From: Candidatus Thorarchaeota archaeon
GTDB lineage: Archaea > Asgardarchaeota > Heimdallarchaeia > Hodarchaeales > Hodarchaeaceae
Assembly (NCBI GenBank): GCA_048882505.1
Contig: JBHLRO010000022.1
Coordinates: forward strand, 31,362 to 63,361
Reading direction: 5' to 3'
Length of the DNA: 32,000 nucleotides
Below the pieces are notes generated by a model, which was not told the DNA's origin, did no database searches, and saw only the letters and a list, made by a program, of their open reading frames with translations. The translations under genes were made by a program, and so were the position numbers. Of the stretch, positions 2,276 to 12,098 are shown piece after piece; the first letter of the stretch is position 1; every line of letters begins with the position of its first letter.

Positions 2276-3874
2276 ATGTCTAAGACCGTATGGACAATGA
2301 CAGTAGATAGCCAAGATGACGCAATTCAAATCCTTTATTTCAAGGGTGAACACTGTGCCCCGTGTAAACCCGTGGAGAAGCATTTGAAACGGATAGTTGA
2401 AACAAGTCAAGGGAAAGCCCTTATGACGACCATCGACACGGATGAACATGCTGAAATTGCTTCTCGATACGGCGTCAAACAGGTTCCACACGTCTTATTC
2501 AATGAGGAGATAGTGCTAACTGCAGGGCAAGCCAGTGGAATGGTGGGCTTTGGTGAATTTGACCAGTATGACTTATTCAATTACCTATTTAACAAGCTGA
2601 TTGAGGCTGGGGTCAAAGCAAGCGAAGCAGAACGAGATCGCTGGCGAAAATTGTCGATTATCACAGTGTCTGAACGGTTGATAAATGTAGAAGAAAGTGG
2701 TATTGTAACAAGACCCTCAGTAGGAGATTATGTTCATATTGGGCATCTTCAATCAATCGTAACGTCTTTACTAGCTATCAATCCTTCCGCCAAAACATAC
2801 CTATTTCGCGCGGGAGAGATGGCCGGAAAATTCGGCGCAGCGCAATCTTGGCTCGGACGCTATAACCCGAACATTATGTCCACCAATCGGATGGGTGACC
2901 GATTCAAGGAGGTTTTGAAAGGTTTTCGAGTTCTTTACGGTAAGAATCCCATGGAATCAAAGGTAGCGTCGGAGTTGAACTACACCCAATCCTCTCCATA
3001 TCACGCCACGCTTAAGATCATGGGTTCTGCTCATGCCGTTCGGAACTCCGAAATTGGGCAAGATGTTTGTGGGTTCTTGGCCGGGGAGATTTCAGGATTG
3101 CTAGAAGTCACCTTGGGAGAAAAAGCGGCGGTAGTTGAGACTAAATGTTGGGGCCTTGGACATGACCATTGTGAATTCGATATACGGCTGAATGAAAACT
3201 CAGATCACTATTTAGTTCCCTTCTCCAATGCCAAGGAATTTTTTGGAACAGATGACCGTCTTCGATTCGAGCTATCCCTCGCTGAAATCTCGAGAAATAT
3301 GTTTGATTCGATCTTACGTCGTCCTTACGGACTTTTGCGACCAGATATTGGAGATTACATCCATATTTCCTCTCTCCAACATATTCTGACCTCATTGAAA
3401 TTCTCAGATCCTTTCAATTCTACACTCCTCTCCTATGCAGGATTACATTATGGACAAATACTGGAGGATGTAGGTATTATTTCAAGGATTATGACACGCC
3501 GCAATCTCAAATATTCTTTTCCCATGGAATTTGATCAGGCATGTGAGGTTCTTGGATATTACTTTAGCACACCTGGAATGATATATGCTCGTATCCACGC
3601 AGATATGACTGTTGAGATGAAGGATGACGAAACAGCGATCTTTAAAATGTGGGAGAGCGCTGCCACTTCTGGTATTGATCTTTCAACCGTTGATTTATCG
3701 GCACTATTCCCTGGAACGGAAAAACCTGCTACCATAAACACGTTGGATGATTTCATGGCAGGTTTTATCAACGGTCGTTTGGATTTATTGGTGGAGGAAG
3801 ATGTGATTGTTCATGAAGCACGTTGTCAGGCTAGCGGGCACCCGTATTGCGAATTCGTAGCGGAACTAGACTGA
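2276..3874 (+). CDS. Thioredoxin-fold domain fused to two tandem V4R domains
   Basis: N-terminal HCAPCKPV (CxxC) and a cis-Pro QVPHVLF motif. Two internal repeats (RPSVGDYVHIGHLQ / RPDIGDYIHISSLQ) each end in the V4R signature ExxCxxxGxxxCEF. Confidence 0.85.
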   Translation: MSKTVWTMTVDSQDDAIQILYFKGEHCAPCKPVEKHLKRIVETSQGKALMTTIDTDEHAEIASRYGVKQVPHVLFNEEIVLTAGQASGMVGFGEFDQYDLFNYLFNKLIEAGVKASEAERDRWRKLSIITVSERLINVEESGIVTRPSVGDYVHIGHLQSIVTSLLAINPSAKTYLFRAGEMAGKFGAAQSWLGRYNPNIMSTNRMGDRFKEVLKGFRVLYGKNPMESKVASELNYTQSSPYHATLKIMGSAHAVRNSEIGQDVCGFLAGEISGLLEVTLGEKAAVVETKCWGLGHDHCEFDIRLNENSDHYLVPFSNAKEFFGTDDRLRFELSLAEISRNMFDSILRRPYGLLRPDIGDYIHISSLQHILTSLKFSDPFNSTLLSYAGLHYGQILEDVGIISRIMTRRNLKYSFPMEFDQACEVLGYYFSTPGMIYARIHADMTVEMKDDETAIFKMWESAATSGIDLSTVDLSALFPGTEKPATINTLDDFMAGFINGRLDLLVEEDVIVHEARCQASGHPYCEFVAELD

Positions 3875-5128
3875 CGATGCTTCAGCCGACCGAATCTCCC
3901 GATTTGGAGAATCATCTGTAAGGGCCCGTATCGAGGAAACCGCGAGGATTCCCAACCCTAGGATGCATAACAACGCGGAAATCGCAAAAAATGGATTTTC
4001 TGTTATTTTTGAATATGCTTCAATAGACCAAAGAAGCGACCACCAGATTTCTCCTATGTAAACCATTGTAAGACCGCCGACCAAGCCTAAAAGTGCGTAG
4101 TCAGACCAAAGCGCAATCTCAGTTTCCTTATCCTTTTTGATTCTAAGAACGAGCATAATGGAATAGAATGCAAAGAAAAATGGAATATAATGAGGGTATA
4201 GGATACGATTAAACATCAGAAATATAGTCATCAAAGGGACAACCGTCTCCAAAATCCATCGTTGGGAAATCACAGGTGATCGAATGACAAGATACATGAG
4301 ACAAATCGTGAGCAATGTGAACTGAATTAAAAATGGAAGTAATGTGGTCGAAAATTCGGTGAAAAAATAGGTATATAATGACATACTGGGATCTGGTCGG
4401 GTCGCGTGAATCAGAAAGACATCCTCTATATATTGTGAGGGAGCAAGAATTAGGAAAGGAAAGGAGACCATAAGAAATAATGCCCCTGCAATTCCCCAGG
4501 TCCACAGAACCTGCCATTTCCGTGCTCGAATCCCCCATACCAAAAGAGGAAGCATATATATACCTGCTGTTGGTTTGGTTAGCAGTGCAAGACCAAATCC
4601 CACACCGCCTAGTATGTAATTGTCATTCAAAATAGCAATAAACGCCATTAAAACAAAGATGAGCATAAAACCTTCGTGATAACCTCCGAAGACAACTCCT
4701 AGCGTTGCTGGATTTAGCAAAAACCAATTCATGGCTAGAAGGGAAACAGTTCGACTTTGAGGGATATTTTCGGTAATTTTAGACACAAGAAGATAAAGTA
4801 AAACTCCGTTAATTAGGTTACAGATTATTAAAAATATTTTAACTCCTTGCCATGTAACGTTTTCGACCCCCACTATGCCCATCAATGCTGCCAAGGTGTA
4901 TAAATAGAGCGGTGGATACTGTGGCCTAGGAAGACGCTTCCCTTCCAATACTATGGCGCCTATGTCACGGTAAAGGAGTTTACCTCTCGAAATTTCCTTC
5001 GCCGCTTCAAATTGAAGAACAAAATCCACTGGATTAAAATATAAGAGCCCTACCACCAAGTGTACAAGTAAATTTACAAAAAACGAAACCTTAACTCGCT
5101 GTAAATGATTCATATTGCTCAGAAACAT
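3866..5128 (-). CDS. GT-C fold membrane glycosyltransferase (GT87/PIG-M-like)
   Basis: About 10 TM segments, an N-terminal loop D..F...YPPLYLY, and motifs NPATL..V.GGYHEG, ALLTKP and YPHY typical of polyprenyl-phosphate-sugar dependent transferases. Confidence 0.75.
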   Translation of the reverse strand: MFLSNMNHLQRVKVSFFVNLLVHLVVGLLYFNPVDFVLQFEAAKEISRGKLLYRDIGAIVLEGKRLPRPQYPPLYLYTLAALMGIVGVENVTWQGVKIFLIICNLINGVLLYLLVSKITENIPQSRTVSLLAMNWFLLNPATLGVVFGGYHEGFMLIFVLMAFIAILNDNYILGGVGFGLALLTKPTAGIYMLPLLVWGIRARKWQVLWTWGIAGALFLMVSFPFLILAPSQYIEDVFLIHATRPDPSMSLYTYFFTEFSTTLLPFLIQFTLLTICLMYLVIRSPVISQRWILETVVPLMTIFLMFNRILYPHYIPFFFAFYSIMLVLRIKKDKETEIALWSDYALLGLVGGLTMVYIGEIWWSLLWSIEAYSKITENPFFAISALLCILGLGILAVSSIRALTDDSPNREIRSAEASSV

Positions 5129-5519: not shown

Positions 5520-6881
5520 TTAAGCCGCTTCTCCGTACAGTCGTTTAATCCTACTACGCCAAGGTAGGAACTCATCGGGACTTCTTGGATAATTTTCATA
5601 GAGATCCCTGGCATTGTTCATTCTGTTAAGGATTCCTCGAAATTTGAGAAGCGTTCCCAGCATAGTTCTGCCACGCCATATTCGTCCGAGGTTCTTTGTG
5701 AAGCTGCCACCAGATAGTTGCCCCGTTGCATTACCATATAGAAGATCGTCCTCTTGTAGGATCCGTTTATGAAAAACTTTATTTATGAGTTCACTGGGCA
5801 TCGGAACAATGAAATCTTTCATAATTGCTAATGGGGCCGTTACAGGGGCAATGGTTGTCATAAACTCGACACTGTAATCCCATAGCCCATTCTGTGAGAC
5901 ATCCCCATTTTCTAATGCTTTAGTAATAGTTTTTGTTGCCATTGCCGCAGCATTGACACTTATTCCTATTCCCCCGCCATCAGTGGGTTTAACTTGAGTC
6001 CCCGCATCGCCTATCAACATAAAACCGTTCCAAACCAAATTATCCTGTGGTCGTCTTAAAGGAACCGGCCAACCTCCACCATGTATGATCTCAGAGTCCT
6101 TGTAAAATCCTTTGACGGACTCCATGAATACTTGAAATTGTTTTTGCGGACTCAAATTGTTGATTTTCATTACTCCTAATCCGACATTCATACTCTTGGG
6201 CCCTCGTGGAAACTCCCAAATATATCCTCCGGGACAGATTTCTTGATCGAACATTAGACGTATGAATTCAGGAGATTCAATTTCTGTTTCCGTGTCCCGA
6301 AGTTCCCGGTAACATTTACAGACATCTTTTGGATCCAAGAACCGATCCATATAGGTTTTTTCTGGATCTAAATTTCTCCTGAGGAAGGCGTTTATCCCCG
6401 TGGCGTCTATTGTAACTTTTGCAAAGTCTTCCTTAAGCGTACTATCTTTTTCTCGATATCGAATCCCGATTACACTATCCTTTTCCACAATGGGCTCCTT
6501 AACCCTAGTATCATCAATGAGCTCGGCCCCATAGTCCATGGCCGTTTCTAATGTACGCATGCCCATTTTAAAGCGATCAAGGATGACACCCGTGCTATTT
6601 TTTTCGACGAGTTCAAGTTTTACTTCTCTGTCGGGGGAATATAGCCAGGCCCCTTTAACCCGTTGAAGGATTTCATCTCCTTTCGGAGGAGAAACCCCTA
6701 TTATCGATTCAATCTTTTTAAAATGATCAAGACTCGAAGCGTCACCACAGATTTTGACACCGATATCATCTTTAGGTAATCGATCATAAAGAGCGACCTT
6801 TAGCCCATGATGCGCCAGTCCAGCCGCCGCTACAGAACCCGCGGTGCCCGCACCAGCAACTATAACGTCGTAATTGGTCAT
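5520..6881 (-). CDS. Geranylgeranyl reductase family flavoprotein (DGGGPL reductase-like)
   Basis: Motifs DVIVAGAGTAG (FAD), ICGDA, PGGYIWEFP (PxxYxWxFP) and GDA..QVKP.DGGGI. The start is placed at ATG 6881 (MTNYD) rather than the ORF-track start at 6947. Confidence 0.9.
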   Translation of the reverse strand: MTNYDVIVAGAGTAGSVAAAGLAHHGLKVALYDRLPKDDIGVKICGDASSLDHFKKIESIIGVSPPKGDEILQRVKGAWLYSPDREVKLELVEKNSTGVILDRFKMGMRTLETAMDYGAELIDDTRVKEPIVEKDSVIGIRYREKDSTLKEDFAKVTIDATGINAFLRRNLDPEKTYMDRFLDPKDVCKCYRELRDTETEIESPEFIRLMFDQEICPGGYIWEFPRGPKSMNVGLGVMKINNLSPQKQFQVFMESVKGFYKDSEIIHGGGWPVPLRRPQDNLVWNGFMLIGDAGTQVKPTDGGGIGISVNAAAMATKTITKALENGDVSQNGLWDYSVEFMTTIAPVTAPLAIMKDFIVPMPSELINKVFHKRILQEDDLLYGNATGQLSGGSFTKNLGRIWRGRTMLGTLLKFRGILNRMNNARDLYENYPRSPDEFLPWRSRIKRLYGEAA

Positions 6882-7225
6882 TTTCCTCACGTTAAACATG
6901 ATGAATGGGATCTTATCAATTGCGCTGCATGAATTTAGTATAATCAAAAACCACGATGAAAGAACCTAGATAATGGACCGAAATTTCTTCTCAGGTCAAT
7001 ATATTATCCAAACTCTCTGACTAAGCATGCTGCAATTAAACGTGGATCTCCCTGGACTTCCTGAGAAAAATCTCTCTGAATTTTCTTTAAGATTCTAATT
7101 CATTGGTTCGCCTTGTTAAAATTGCATTCTCACCGATGCGAGAAACGAAAAATAACGTAAATAATTTGATTACGATGTGTACACGTTCAACTTTTATCTA
7201 CAGTAATGACAAGAAGAGTTCACCC

Positions 7226-8839
7226 ATGGCAACTAAATTACACCCGACAACACAATTCTATCTGTTTTTAGCCCTTCTTATAGGGGTTGTTATTGGCTCT
7301 GGAGGAGGCTTCATTATGTTTTCAATAGTCAACCCTAACCAACCTGCTAGAGAAACAGTAACTTTTGACATCGGAGCTTATCAATGGGGCTTTGATCCCA
7401 ATAGAATTGAAGTAAAACTCGGAGACCACGTGGTCTTGAGATTTTCAAGTAACGCAACTACGGAACCCGCTTACACAAGGCATTCAATTATTATTCAAAC
7501 CTATAATATAAGCGCTGATTTGCCCGTTGGTCAGATTACAATTGTAGAATTTGACGCGACTGTCCCTGGAGAATTTCTTGGTGAATGTGGTATCTTTTGC
7601 GGACGAGATCATGCAGCTATGTCTATGACGATCGTTGTGAGCGGAGCTGAGGAAGATGCTCCTGAACAGGACTTACAACCAGTCACCCAACTTGGCCAAG
7701 GTGTTACTGCCGGAACCTGGAATAACTCTGACGTAATGGTTATAGTCGAGAGAGAAGCCAGATCAATATCGTTTATTGATGGAAGCAGTAATACATACCT
7801 CGGAAGATTGTCAGGAATTGGTTATCAACCACATACAGTTGTGTTTTCTAGTAATTTAACATTTGGCTACATCATCGGACGAGGAGGATGGTTTGTAAAA
7901 TTTGGTTTGGATGATTTTCAAGCTAAAGCGTGGATAAAAGTCGGAACTTCAAGTAGAGGAACGGCTATTAGTAACGATGATAACTATGTGCTGGTAAGTA
8001 ACTATGAGCCGTCAAGTTTCGTGATCGTCAATACAAGGACAATGGAAATCGCTAAAGACTACCAAATCCCAATCCCATACGATGAAAACGGAACTACGGA
8101 AGGATCCCGGGTTGCATCGATCATTGATACGCCGAACAACCTGATGGTCATTGCAATGAAAGATCTAGGTGAAGTGTGGGTAGTTAATATGTCGGAACCG
8201 AACTTCCCTGTCGCAAAAATATTCTACGATGTCGGAGAGGTTCTTCATGACGCATTTTTAACTGAAGATGGACGGTATTACTTCCTAGCTAGTCAGGGGT
8301 CAAACTGGATTTGGGTTCTAGATACGGAGACCTTAACAGAGGTAGCACGGATTACTACTGGAGAAAAACCACACCCTGGTCCAGGTGCACTATGGGGTGA
8401 TTTGGCTTTCTCACCATCTATTGGTGAGGGAAGATTAAACATTTGGAATACCACTTCATTTACGATGCACAGAAATATTACACACGGTGGTCCGGGATTG
8501 TTTATTCGATCCTATTCCAGAAATGCTTCCTATCCTTATATTTGGTGGGATACCATACTATCCTCCGATCCTGCTGAAAACAGATTAATCCATGTACTCG
8601 ATGCAAGAACTATAGATGATCCTACTCCACTGATCTACGATTTAGCCCCAGGAAACGGATCCCTTCATCCCGAGTTCACCTATAATGGAAAATATGTCTA
8701 TGTATCACTTTGGCACGAAAGTAAAGTAGTCGTGTACGATGCCTACAACTTCAATGATGGGCCAATAACATCATTTATCATTACAACGCCAACAGGGATC
8801 TTTAATGCCGGATTACGCGTCGAAGAAGTAGGGCTGTAA
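7226..8839 (+). CDS. Membrane-anchored CuA cupredoxin plus cytochrome d1 heme-binding beta-propeller (NirS-like, no heme c domain)
   Basis: N-terminal TM helix; cupredoxin with YQWGF, H (7481) and CGIFCGRDHAAM (7586-7621). The propeller carries QPH, VLHDA, KPHPGPG, GLFIRSY, LHPEFT and TPTGIFN motifs like NirS/NirN/NirF. The probable start is ATG 7226; the ORF track extends to TTG 7103. Confidence 0.85.
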   Translation: MATKLHPTTQFYLFLALLIGVVIGSGGGFIMFSIVNPNQPARETVTFDIGAYQWGFDPNRIEVKLGDHVVLRFSSNATTEPAYTRHSIIIQTYNISADLPVGQITIVEFDATVPGEFLGECGIFCGRDHAAMSMTIVVSGAEEDAPEQDLQPVTQLGQGVTAGTWNNSDVMVIVEREARSISFIDGSSNTYLGRLSGIGYQPHTVVFSSNLTFGYIIGRGGWFVKFGLDDFQAKAWIKVGTSSRGTAISNDDNYVLVSNYEPSSFVIVNTRTMEIAKDYQIPIPYDENGTTEGSRVASIIDTPNNLMVIAMKDLGEVWVVNMSEPNFPVAKIFYDVGEVLHDAFLTEDGRYYFLASQGSNWIWVLDTETLTEVARITTGEKPHPGPGALWGDLAFSPSIGEGRLNIWNTTSFTMHRNITHGGPGLFIRSYSRNASYPYIWWDTILSSDPAENRLIHVLDARTIDDPTPLIYDLAPGNGSLHPEFTYNGKYVYVSLWHESKVVVYDAYNFNDGPITSFIITTPTGIFNAGLRVEEVGL

Positions 8840-8877
8840 GTATTTTTTAATACAGCACTGGCTCATTTTGAGCCCCT

Positions 8878-8900
8878 ATTTTTCTCTTTTCTTTTTTTTA
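8878..8900 (+). terminator. T-rich tract, probable archaeal terminator of the NirS-like gene
   Basis: The run ttttttctcttttctttttttta lies about 40 nt after the stop codon, between convergent genes. Confidence 0.45.
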
Positions 8901-9030
8901 GCGTTAGATTGGTACTCATCTATAAGGAGCTGATATGTACGAATAAGAAGCTGCTCGAAGTTGCCTCAGAAGCTTATGGAGAGAACAATTTAATTTAAAT
9001 CTCAATTCACCCGAATCTACCCAAATCGCC

Positions 9031-10179
9031 TTAACTGAGCCGCTGTAATGCCTCAATTACCTTGGATTGTGTTTGCTTCCGCTCTTCTAGTTCTCGTTTG
9101 AGGTAATCGATACTCGAGACTGTGCTTGGATCCTTGTGATTCAACATGGCCAGGTAGATACTGATGAAGTCAAATAAGTATGTAACAGACAGCAGTTGGC
9201 TAAGCAAGTGGACTCCCTTGCCATGGACCTCGATGAGTTCACACTTTGGACTTACGATTCTCTTACTGATCTCGAAACGTAAACGAACGTATTGATGCTC
9301 TGTTGGGAATCGTATCGCCAATACTAGGAAAGGGTAATCGTTTTTTTCGTACCCTTCCCATCCAACTATATGATTATGGTTTAGTTCGGGTAATTCCTCA
9401 GAGATCGCTAGCATCTTTGAATTCTCGTTGAACTGACACTTAATTCGATTTGCAACACATCCATACGGGGCCCAAATAACGGGTATTTTTTGAAACAGAT
9501 TCATCGCGGTATTTTTTGCACTGTTCTCAGGTAAATTAACATCAGGACGACATTGATCTCGTATATCTCGAAGGTTATACAATAATTCATCGATTGCGGT
9601 CCCTTGCAAACTTATCATATCGAATGATTGAAAAATCTTCACCAAAGCAAGAAAAATGAGTGGAAACGCTGCTCGTGGTTGAAAACCCCCTGGAATTTCG
9701 AAATGTGGTAGGGAATTCTCCTCAAAAAATCTGGTAATATAACCTCCTGAAGATATCCCTACAACAGGGCAGCCTTTTTCGAGAGCTAAGAGAAGACAGG
9801 ACAGGGTTTCCTCAGTGTTTCCAGAATAAGATACCAAACATACTAATGTATCTTTTCCAACAAATTTAGGAAGATTGTAATTCCTAATCACAGTAACGGG
9901 AATTTGCAGCGGAAATATTACCTTAACATAATCGCCACTAACAGCTGAACCCCCCATCCCGCAAATAATGATGCTATTCGGTTTTTCTACATATGAAACT
10001 TCGAACTTATCTGTTTTAATGTGAGAAGGTATTGTAAAATCACGCGAAAGAAGAACCTCTATCAATTCAGGCAGACTGTACACCTGGTTCAACATGTTTT
10101 TGGGATCGTATTCTTTCATTTGAGCCGTATTATTTAAATCCATAAAATCCGCTCCGACTAAGAATTGATAGTATGACAA
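9031..10179 (-). CDS. Bifunctional phosphoglucose/phosphomannose isomerase (SIS domain)
   Basis: Motifs GMGGSAVSG, SYSGNTEETL, GFQPRAA, KCQFNENSK and PELNHN. Confidence 0.93.
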   Translation of the reverse strand: MSYYQFLVGADFMDLNNTAQMKEYDPKNMLNQVYSLPELIEVLLSRDFTIPSHIKTDKFEVSYVEKPNSIIICGMGGSAVSGDYVKVIFPLQIPVTVIRNYNLPKFVGKDTLVCLVSYSGNTEETLSCLLLALEKGCPVVGISSGGYITRFFEENSLPHFEIPGGFQPRAAFPLIFLALVKIFQSFDMISLQGTAIDELLYNLRDIRDQCRPDVNLPENSAKNTAMNLFQKIPVIWAPYGCVANRIKCQFNENSKMLAISEELPELNHNHIVGWEGYEKNDYPFLVLAIRFPTEHQYVRLRFEISKRIVSPKCELIEVHGKGVHLLSQLLSVTYLFDFISIYLAMLNHKDPSTVSSIDYLKRELEERKQTQSKVIEALQRLS

Positions 10180-10266: not shown

Positions 10267-10728
10267 ATGCGAGGAACATTCCTCCGACTTCTTAGTTTTC
10301 TCGGTGAAACCGGATACTATGCGCGAACGCCAAATGAAAAAGAAATCTTGTCGGAATTAACTGAAACAGGAGTTGTCCAATTAAAAAAGAGAACGAAAAA
10401 CGTTTATACACTTACTCGTGAGGGGTATCAGTTGGTTAGCGAGAGATCAGCGAATACCCCCCAAGTTTCTGATGACCAATTCCTCCAATGGCTAAGAAAA
10501 GCTTATCAACAATTGGCCAATCCTCTTAACCCATTGGTTAAAATACCAGATCTCAGAACTCGATTAAGCACTAAATGTCACGATGCTGTTTTTGAGAAAA
10601 AAATGCTGGACTTTCATGATCAAGGAGTCTTGACTCTTCACACAGCATTTTCAAAACAACATGCGGAAGGTGGGATAGAATCAAGAACCAAACCTGGGGT
10701 ATATTACTACGTGATGTTTGAGGCATAG
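10267..10728 (+). CDS. Winged-helix domain protein, probably two wHTH modules
   Basis: LSELTETGVVQ....NVYTLTREG is a wHTH wing. The C-terminal LVKIPDLRTRL...FEKKMLDFHDQGVLTL is a second helix-wing unit. Confidence 0.6.
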   Translation: MRGTFLRLLSFLGETGYYARTPNEKEILSELTETGVVQLKKRTKNVYTLTREGYQLVSERSANTPQVSDDQFLQWLRKAYQQLANPLNPLVKIPDLRTRLSTKCHDAVFEKKMLDFHDQGVLTLHTAFSKQHAEGGIESRTKPGVYYYVMFEA

Positions 10729-10733
10729 TTACT

Positions 10734-12098
10734 ATGAGCCATCCTGCCACAATTATTACAGAAAATCCATTTCATACCTTTGTTGCACGCCCAGACGTTC
10801 CTGTACGTTTTAATCTTAACCGACCCAATCAAATGGCAGTTGATAATGTCAAACGATTTTTAAAGATAATAAGAGCCAAAAAACGAGAAAACGTCCTTCT
10901 TCCAATTATTGCAGAAGCGGGATCAGGCAAAACGCATCTCTTTCATGTAATTCGGGAAGTTGTGACGGATGCTTACGCAGTATACATTCCAGTCCCCATC
11001 AATACCGAGCGGATATTTGCTCATATTTATTTTGAAACGGTGAAGGCAGGTGGGGCATTGCTTCTTGAGTGGGTAGCGGATTATCTAGAGCAAACTTACA
11101 AATCTGTCGAAAACGCAGCTTTGGAATTCCCTGGAATGACCAATATAGTAATTACTGGTTTTTTTGCTCTAAAGGATCCTAAACAGGCCAAAATAGCCCT
11201 AAAATGGTTAACAGGTTTTGATGTGGACTCTGAGACAGTCCATTTTAAGCGGACAATAATGGACGATGAAGATCTTGCATTTGCCGCGCTACAATTAATT
11301 CTTAGGGTGATTGACAAACCCATTATCTTTTTTATAGATGAAGTCGAATCTTTATTTATTTCACAGGGCCCTGAAGCAGAACTTCGGTTTTTGGAGACAA
11401 TAAAGAAATTAGTTAACGAGGCTTCAAATTTTCTTATGTGTCTTGCCTGTTTGATCACCCTATGGGATAAAATTCTGGATCTTTCAAGCACTGCATTTCA
11501 AGGACGGATTGAACCACCAATTGTGCTGAAACATTTCACAAAAGAAGACATAAATGACTATTGTCAATCTGTTCTTCCTGAATTCCACGTTAGGTTTGAT
11601 ATTTCGCCTCCAGATCCTCTGTGGCCATTAGAAAAGGGAGATATCGAATCTTCATACGCGTACTCACATGGAAATCCTAGAGAAGCTATCAAATGGTTAG
11701 CAGGAATAATAGAGAAGAGAAAGATTGCACTTCTGGAAACATTGGATACAAATCAACAGTACCTTACTAGAATTGGTTCAAGAGTAAAAACCAAAATTGA
11801 ACATGTCATCAAAGGTACGGTTGGGCTCCTCCATAAAAATCATGGGCTTTTGGTTCCCGTTTCAAATGAAGACCTTCGCATTTTGGTCGTAATACCTCCC
11901 CATAACACCGTGTCTGACCTATTTCAGGAATCATTTTGGGCTGCAGTTGCTCGTAGAACCACAAATGAAGATTATGATAAAATTATCTCGATAGGTGAAG
12001 AGGAAGACATGGAACAACAAAAGACCAAGCTAGAATATGAATATTTTACTGAAGGGGAATTTGAAGAAGGTCTAGCGACAATATTGGACGTCAAATGA
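10734..12098 (+). CDS. AAA+-type P-loop ATPase with an uncharacterised C-terminal domain
   Basis: Walker A AEAGSGKTHL, Walker B IFFIDEVE, Arg-finger-like AFQGRI and lid motif GNPRE. It starts 5 bp after the wHTH gene. Confidence 0.8.
   Translation: MSHPATIITENPFHTFVARPDVPVRFNLNRPNQMAVDNVKRFLKIIRAKKRENVLLPIIAEAGSGKTHLFHVIREVVTDAYAVYIPVPINTERIFAHIYFETVKAGGALLLEWVADYLEQTYKSVENAALEFPGMTNIVITGFFALKDPKQAKIALKWLTGFDVDSETVHFKRTIMDDEDLAFAALQLILRVIDKPIIFFIDEVESLFISQGPEAELRFLETIKKLVNEASNFLMCLACLITLWDKILDLSSTAFQGRIEPPIVLKHFTKEDINDYCQSVLPEFHVRFDISPPDPLWPLEKGDIESSYAYSHGNPREAIKWLAGIIEKRKIALLETLDTNQQYLTRIGSRVKTKIEHVIKGTVGLLHKNHGLLVPVSNEDLRILVVIPPHNTVSDLFQESFWAAVARRTTNEDYDKIISIGEEEDMEQQKTKLEYEYFTEGEFEEGLATILDVK

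Follow-up and report, generated by a model that had tools for sequence, protein, structure and literature searches.

The window analysed here, a 32,000-nt stretch of contig JBHLRO010000022.1 (GCA_048882505.1), belongs to the genome of a Heimdall (Asgard) archaeon (G000; 4.32 Mb, 94.5% complete) and contains a gene for a copper-binding relative of the cytochrome cd1 nitrite reductase NirS. The open reading frame spans 7103-8839 on the forward strand, and its likely start is the ATG at 7226, which gives a protein of 537 amino acids (P0001; 7226-8839). A longer, TTG-initiated frame from 7103 is unlikely, because a Heimdallarchaeota homologue of 94% identity is also 537 amino acids long and aligns end to end. 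The protein begins with a transmembrane helix (residues 7-35; 7244-7330), followed by a cupredoxin domain (residues 44-139; 7355-7642), a short acidic linker (residues 140-160; 7643-7705) and an eight-bladed d1-type beta-propeller (residues 166-528; 7721-8809). Helix, beta-sandwich and propeller are all visible in an AlphaFold2 (AF2) model with a mean pLDDT (predicted local distance difference test) of 89.3, and model confidence is low only in the linker (mean pLDDT of 59 for residues 141-150, with residues 143-145 below 50). The helix also stands out as a hydrophobic stretch in the translation and would anchor the protein in the membrane with its domains facing outward, as CuA domains are extracytoplasmic. 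A first-pass annotation of the window had proposed a hybrid NO-forming nitrite reductase of an Asgard archaeon, in which CuA replaces haem c as the point of electron entry, and both the host and this domain architecture were borne out.

The gene lies with its own flanks in a segment (6948-9030) between a geranylgeranyl-reductase gene (GGR; 5520-6947, reverse strand) and a phosphoglucose-isomerase gene (PGI; 9031-10179, reverse strand). In the rest of the genus, homologues of GGR and PGI are neighbours separated by about 0.2-0.5 kb, and the 2.1-kb segment occurs solely in G000 and G016 (two of 22 genomes). Based on this adjacency elsewhere in the genus, the CuA-D1 gene, as it is called below, is a single-gene insertion that arrived without cofactor genes. 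The inserted region is syntenic with that of Heimdallarchaeota TM2S.58 at 87% nucleotide identity. Comparison of the gene with its TM2S.58 orthologue gave a dN (nonsynonymous rate) of 0.028, a dS (synonymous rate) of 0.58 and a dN/dS of 0.049, with both domains constrained, and the reading frame is uninterrupted in G000, G016 and G023. Judged by these substitution patterns, the gene is functional and under strong purifying selection, and such conservation would not be expected of a useless apo-protein. Reading of the flanks suggests a putative TATA-box-like element, TTTTATCT, 27-34 nt 5' of the ATG (7192-7199, forward strand) and a terminator-like T-rich run 3' of the stop codon (8879-8899, forward strand). 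The genes around CuA-D1 in the window serve lipid, sugar and housekeeping functions and give no clue to its role, and the sequencing runs listed comprise only sediment and other metagenome DNA runs, with no RNA run among them.

The cupredoxin domain matches the soluble CuA domain of the Thermus ba3 oxidase (E = 2e-9), and all five side-chain ligands coincide in the alignment. These are H86 (7481-7483), which aligns to the first CuA histidine of ba3 subunit II, and C121, C125, H129 and M132 of the loop C-x3-C-x3-H-x2-M (7586-7621). All five are invariant in 14 of 14 CuA-D1 proteins. NCBIfam matches of the domain fall on the C-terminal domains of L-NosZ, NosZ and CoxB. The profile search proposed in the first pass gave a strong result for the propeller, with Pfam Cytochrom_D1 (PF02239) matching at 1.9e-61 and 208 bits over profile positions 2-365 of 368, whereas the cupredoxin scored just under the cut-offs of Cupredoxin_1 (8.7e-6; 26.2 bits vs 27) and COX2 (5e-4; 20.4 bits vs 22). 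As the only two cysteines of the protein are both in the CuA loop, no CxxCH motif for covalent haem c is possible, which agrees with the earlier reading. A complex prediction of the CuA domain (residues 38-142) against the propeller (residues 160-537) with haem scored 0.00 and gives no verdict, being evidence neither way.

The propeller retains the catalytic residues of NirS. In a HMMER alignment to Pseudomonas aeruginosa NirS, the three histidines H203, H341 and H383 fall on H182, H327 and H369. H203 (QPH; 7832-7834) corresponds to the proximal iron ligand (H48 in NirF), H341-D342 (LHD; 8246-8251) to the distal H327 and its Asp, and H383 (KPHPG; 8372-8374) to the distal H369 (H238 in NirF). 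The placement of these residues and of the CuA ligands in the first pass was correct throughout, as was the 42-residue spacing between H341 and H383. A fourth histidine, H481 (LHPEF; 8666-8668), is common to NirN, NirF and most NirS-type proteins and is replaced by Gln in the NirS of P. aeruginosa and P. mandelii. Basic residues are present at the positions that bind the haem d1 carboxylates in NirS and NirN, namely R176 (7751-7753), R219 (7880-7882), R244 (7955-7957) and R428 (8507-8509), a set aligned to R156, R198 and R225 of P. aeruginosa NirS. According to the paper describing the NirF structure, the equivalents of H203 and H383 are iron ligands, the equivalent of D342 is common to NirS, NirN and NirF, and the position of R244 is Arg in NirS and NirN and Ile in NirF. 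Nine propeller sites (H203, R219, R244, H341, D342, H383, R428, H481 and E483) are invariant in 121 relatives.

Comparison with labelled references from plasmid records (P. mandelii nirS, nirF and nirN, a Ruegeria nir cluster and Thermus nirS) separates the query from NirF and NirN. It shares its 11-site signature (R176, H203, R219, R244, H341, D342, H383, P386, R428, H481 and E483) in full with the cytochrome c-D1 protein that occupies the nirS position in the complete Ruegeria nir cluster, as well as with cytochrome c-D1 proteins of Bacillota, Thermaerobacter and Arhodomonas. NirF differs by Ile at 244 and Tyr at 341, and NirN by Asp at 341. Maximum-likelihood trees of 52 and 81 propellers, built with a quick search setting, likewise place the query in a large NirS-signature group, with NirF as a separate long branch and NirN as a distinct clade. 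The split of the query from NirF received an SH-aLRT (Shimodaira-Hasegawa-like approximate likelihood ratio test) support of 96-100, and the query did not fall among generic YVTN proteins. NirF membership is therefore contradicted by H341, R244 and the long separate branch, and NirN membership by H341, the lack of CxxCH and a position outside the NirN clade. The same trees did not fix the order of the main NirS-signature clades, for which reason the number of independent CuA-D1 fusions is given as a range and was probably at least one and up to four.

The CuA-D1 architecture is not unique to this organism. The nearest relatives form about 14 clusters at 90% identity from Heimdallarchaeota, Poseidoniales (Marine Group II, MGII) and a Thermofilaceae-type group, and the architecture is present also in Desulfurococcales. 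Sister to the query propeller are more than 100 Patescibacteria clusters (at 90% identity) that are 40-44% identical to it; in these proteins a membrane domain of five to eight helices without a Pfam match and one or two cytochrome b5 domains precede the same propeller. Examples are P0020 (698 aa), P0036 and P0095, as well as L037:8001-10097. A scan of 1.84 billion cluster representatives returned only 44 proteins at E below 1e-30. The N-terminal modules among these relatives include CuA, plastocyanin-type cupredoxins, cytochrome b5, cytochrome c and one archaeal two-domain multicopper oxidase. Such variety indicates that the propeller is a catalytic cassette coupled to whichever one-electron carrier a lineage uses. 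The Heimdall form fits with the work of Eme et al. (2023), who inferred cupredoxins as respiratory-chain electron carriers in Heimdall relatives.

Several other proteins came up beside these groups. The multicopper oxidase fusion (P0122; L051:1596-3836) is encoded on an archaeal contig next to PCNA and is the closest relative in the tree outside the CuA clade of the query. On the Natrinema thermotolerans plasmid CP031304.1, a D1-propeller match of 33% identity in two pieces with no annotated gene (L034:8001-9085) adjoins a molybdopterin-binding oxidoreductase and is probably a disrupted haloarchaeal NirS-like gene. The cupredoxin-C1-C2-NirS proteins of Chloroflexi (PMC8756737) do not share the architecture, as they retain their cytochrome c domains. 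A correspondence between the N-terminal membrane domain of the Patescibacteria proteins and a CopD-like gene upstream of an MGII homologue was also considered and set aside, since BLASTP found no similarity and Pfam gave only a weak DUF2269 hint.

The genomic contexts of homologues say more than the window does about what such proteins may do. One contig (L045; GCA_964469475.1), which is probably haloarchaeal given its 60% GC and haloarchaeal-type Pfam families, encodes a CuA-D1 protein (P0149, 639 aa) that is 31% identical to the query and collinear with it over both domains. In this locus (L045:4994-21679), genes for SCO1/SenC and a multicopper oxidase lie upstream of CuA-D1. Immediately downstream of it come genes for two D1-only propellers, two radical SAM proteins of the NirJ/AhbC family, GlutR, CbiX and a TP-methylase, and for two sirohaem decarboxylases of the fused AhbA/AhbB type. 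Haloarchaea make ordinary haem via sirohaem too. Part of the cluster could thus serve the ordinary haem route, while a run of three consecutive D1 propellers favours d1. The locus is a candidate for a complete copper-d1 nitrite reductase locus in a group in which a survey of haloarchaeal denitrification reported only NirK. As CuA-D1 adjoins siroheme/d1-type biosynthesis genes here, the central element of the first-pass proposal, a d1 enzyme that receives its electrons through CuA, becomes credible for the class.

Two Thermofilaceae-type contigs (L039:2266-6734 and L038:10001-13277) share a conserved operon of CuA-D1, a small protein, a CuA domain fused to a NapH-like polyferredoxin membrane protein, and a CuA cupredoxin. 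G000 carries the same parts as separate genes on another contig (C6:157892-161699), encoding a CuA protein of 216 aa, a polyferredoxin of 749 aa and a putative cupredoxin of 190 aa. From this similarity in gene content, we infer that the module may be a quinol-linked donor to CuA-D1. Another Heimdall relative with the CuA-D1 gene, G023, has NarG, which speaks in favour of a nitrite-reducing role. Among the contexts examined, no haem transporter, nor or nos gene was linked to any homologue.

Taken together, the protein is best explained as a NirS-type enzyme with an iron tetrapyrrole, fed by CuA at the external side of the membrane, that most likely converts nitrite to NO, a reading whose probability lies a little below an even chance. 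Nitrite reduction is favoured because every residue that separates NirS from NirF and NirN is retained and invariant. In this scheme a copper-protein or quinol-linked donor, for which the CuA protein, NapH-like polyferredoxin and cupredoxin module is a candidate, would reduce CuA. Single electrons would then pass from CuA to an iron tetrapyrrole ligated by H203 and held in the centre of the propeller by R176, R219, R244 and R428. The distal NirS-type pair H341/H383 would protonate the bound nitrite, and NO would be released. The tetrapyrrole, haem d1 or a substitute, would be acquired from the surroundings and inserted at the external side of the membrane. Topology, electron donor, reaction and external loading are the parts of this mechanism that we infer.

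A number of observations weigh against nitrite reduction by this protein, and the most serious concern the cofactor. G000 contains one D1 gene only, and searches of its genome did not find NirJ (the best radical-SAM match reached 50 bits vs a cut-off of 515), HemB, HemC, AhbAB/NirDLGH, GlutR, CbiX or CobA. Tblastn searches of G000 with P. mandelii NirD, NirE and NirC and with haloarchaeal GlutR, CbiX, TP-methylase and NirDL/GH gave no match either, so that of nirDLGH/ahbAB, nirJ, nirE, nirF and nirN none was found. Across the genus, HemB was found in one of 21 other genomes, where the match lies on a contig end of a 74%-complete metagenome-assembled genome (MAG), and it was not found in three single-contig genomes. 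HemB, PF17805 (AhbAB) and NirJ were likewise not found in five other genomes (one Heimdall, three Poseidoniales and one Thermofilaceae) that carry query-type or Thermofilaceae-type CuA-D1. The haem d1 cofactor assumed in the first pass is therefore the part of that proposal that lacks support in this host, in which the genes for its synthesis were not found. A denitrification setting is not supported either, as NarG and NirK were not found in G000 and no denitrification chain surrounds the gene, which is a lone insertion in a host with a single haem-copper oxidase.

Two further points in this direction come from homologues. On an MGII contig (L041), a NirK gene (6217-7740, reverse strand) divergently adjoins CuA-D1 (8001-9857, forward strand); this NirK passes TIGR02376 (321.6 bits vs a cut-off of 296.3) and has an N-terminal cupredoxin extension. 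Its presence argues that a second nitrite reductase might be redundant there and suggests a role for CuA-D1 beside, not instead of, nitrite reduction, in what is a single case. In addition, the top PDB sequence matches of the query are NirF (2e-37) and NirN (5e-35) and not NirS, for which the P. aeruginosa and P. pantotrophus proteins scored about 1e-17. Taken by itself, this ranking would match one of the outcomes that the first pass named as refuting its proposal. A grouping with NirF and NirN based on these scores was dropped, as pocket sites and trees place the propeller outside both, and their lead is an effect of which NirS proteins have structures. Foldseek with the AF2 model gave NirF, NirN and NirS near-equal scores (E of 1e-26 to 1e-28).

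The one haem-copper oxidase of G000 (A-type), together with the lack of tetrapyrrole synthesis, implies that this archaeon imports haem, and its genus looks like an aerobic haem auxotroph. The cofactor of CuA-D1 must then come from outside, and an extracytoplasmic apo-propeller could be loaded without an import step. HemB was also not found in a 0.6-Mb Patescibacteria genome with the cytochrome b5 form. Patescibacteria, MG-IIb and Asgardarchaeota are all listed as groups rich in haem auxotrophs by Kim et al. (2021). Perhaps the whole clade, with CuA entry in Heimdall and MGII and cytochrome b5 entry in Patescibacteria, consists of NirS-type enzymes confined to organisms that make no tetrapyrroles and working on the cell surface with a cofactor (haem d1 or ordinary haem) from the environment or from neighbouring cells. 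This broader proposal is possible but doubtful.

Alternatively, the propeller could serve a haem-auxotrophic cell by capturing or modifying a tetrapyrrole from outside, in the way that NirF and NirN process d1 precursors together with a cytochrome, and CuA would then be an electron sink or source. This is unlikely without being negligible. The query clade and its b5 sister were found only in lineages without tetrapyrrole synthesis, in line with the list of groups rich in haem auxotrophs, and the PDB ranking, the shared H481 and the redox chemistry that NirF (with NirC) and NirN each perform on a bound tetrapyrrole all fit such a role. Yet the NirS-specific H341 is kept in the query and replaced in both NirF and NirN, the query branches with neither, and no transporter or haem-uptake gene was linked in any context examined. 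A substrate other than nitrite presents another option, with a NirS-type haem enzyme reducing O2, NO or NH2OH, or oxidizing one of these and passing electrons via CuA to the A-type oxidase, for detoxification or as an auxiliary electron sink. Reduction of O2 and hydroxylamine by cd1 enzymes is established, and the automatic JGI name of homologues reflects it. The gene set of G000 (a haem-copper oxidase, with NarG, NirK and NOR not found), the NirK neighbour in MGII, which would place the reaction after or beside nitrite reduction, and the fusion of a sister propeller to a two-domain multicopper oxidase are in line with this option. The NirK adjacency and the oxidase fusion are single cases, however, and the distal His pair and Asp that serve nitrite protonation in NirS are invariant. 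A non-nitrite substrate is about as likely as tetrapyrrole capture, unlikely but not negligible.

Two further explanations remain. A NosZ-like copper enzyme, in which CuA feeds a metal centre held by propeller histidines, would remove the cofactor-supply problem, as no tetrapyrrole is needed. NosZ itself combines CuA with a beta-propeller, copper proteins are abundant in the host, and clade III L-NosZ is the best NCBIfam match (1.8e-16 in three stretches). That match reaches just 59.7 bits vs a cut-off of 700, however, with its best stretch covering the cupredoxin alone, and the NosZ model reaches 29.9 bits vs 625. Only four propeller histidines are invariant vs seven for CuZ, the conserved Arg residues correspond to those that bind the cofactor carboxylates in d1 enzymes, and PF02239 matches from end to end, so that a NosZ-like enzyme is very improbable. 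The gene could also be a horizontally acquired passenger that is inactive for want of a cofactor, in keeping with a single-gene insertion in two of 22 genomes without cofactor genes. The low dN/dS of 0.049 at a dS of 0.58, with constraint on both domains, the intact frames in G000, G016 and G023, and the invariance of all functional residues make this hardly credible.

The proposed CuA-fed NirS-type enzyme resembles NirS itself (EC 1.7.2.1; PDB 1nir and 1aof; Ruegeria and Bacillota-type clades) in its eight-bladed d1-type propeller, its proximal His, distal His-His pair, Asp and basic residues for the cofactor carboxylates, its N-terminal one-electron entry domain and its extracytoplasmic location, the last predicted for the query. 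It differs in that a binuclear CuA cupredoxin takes the place of covalent haem c and its cytochrome c motif, in its tether by a transmembrane helix, and in a host without d1 or haem biosynthesis, and its activity is a prediction. The haloarchaeal NirS-like proteins without cytochrome c, represented by P0149, share the collinear CuA and d1 domains and the catalytic His. P0149 departs from the query in its place amid siroheme/d1-type biosynthesis genes, two D1-only propellers and SCO1, in a long signal region where the query has a simple transmembrane anchor, and in a position near NirN and the canonical NirS group in the propeller tree. The b5-D1 proteins of Patescibacteria have the same site signature except for K at 176, and their hosts also lack tetrapyrrole synthesis; they are bacterial and far more numerous, and receive electrons through cytochrome b5 behind a membrane domain. 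NirN (dihydro-haem d1 dehydrogenase; PDB 6rtd) and NirF (with NirC, dihydro-haem d1 synthase; PDB 6tv2) share the propeller fold and H203, H383 and H481, whereas a haem c domain and Asp at 341 set NirN apart, and NirF lacks an entry domain and carries Tyr at 341 and Ile at 244. The query has the CuA ligand set and fold in common with NosZ and cytochrome oxidase subunit II, and NosZ likewise joins CuA to a catalytic beta-propeller. In NosZ, though, the two domains stand in the opposite order, and the propeller is a seven-bladed CuZ carrier in contrast to the eight-bladed d1 type of the query.

Proteins of this type have been present in databases and have been noticed in haloarchaea. In the work of Pold et al. 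(2024; PMC10999283), Halobacteriota NirS-like proteins that lack cytochrome c served as an outgroup and were left out of the counts, and a paper on a Heimdall MAG lists NirS on the strength of automatic annotation, with no analysis of its domains. The searchable literature yielded no biochemical study of a CuA-D1 protein. CuA-D1 is thus a variant of a known enzyme family and not a new kind of enzyme. The Heimdall/MGII CuA clade with its Patescibacteria b5 sister appears to be unreported, as does the confinement of these CuA and b5 clades to tetrapyrrole auxotrophs.

Two enzymes define denitrification, and NirS is one of them. In surveys it is counted by the cytochrome c plus d1 signature, and current nirS screens by design leave out the groups with CuA- and b5-fed forms. 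If these forms are active, conversion of nitrite to NO would extend to Asgard archaea, Marine Group II, Thermoproteota, haloarchaea and many Patescibacteria. If, in addition, the reading for the whole clade is true, haem auxotrophs including Asgard archaea and ultra-small bacteria would gain an unrecognised capacity for this reaction. The cofactor puzzle is more surprising, in that the d1-type pocket is strongly conserved although its hosts produce no tetrapyrrole. The pocket would hold either a scavenged cofactor or some other one, and both outcomes would matter for understanding the redox enzymes of haem auxotrophs, which account for a large part of all uncultured microbes. As a small, single-chain protein, P0001 makes these predictions directly testable.

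Outside the inserted segment, some neighbouring genes are of separate interest. At 3866-5128 (reverse strand) the window encodes a 420-aa multi-pass membrane protein that matches Pfam PIG-U, a GPI (glycosylphosphatidylinositol) transamidase subunit, at 27.4 bits vs a cut-off of 24.5; this is a eukaryote-type family, here in an Asgard genome. The adjoining 2276-3874 (forward strand) encodes a 532-aa protein with an N-terminal thioredoxin domain and two V4R domains, an uncommon pairing. Two neighbouring genes at 10267-12098 (forward strand; 153 and 454 aa) have no Pfam match, and the second contains a P-loop-like GSGKT motif.

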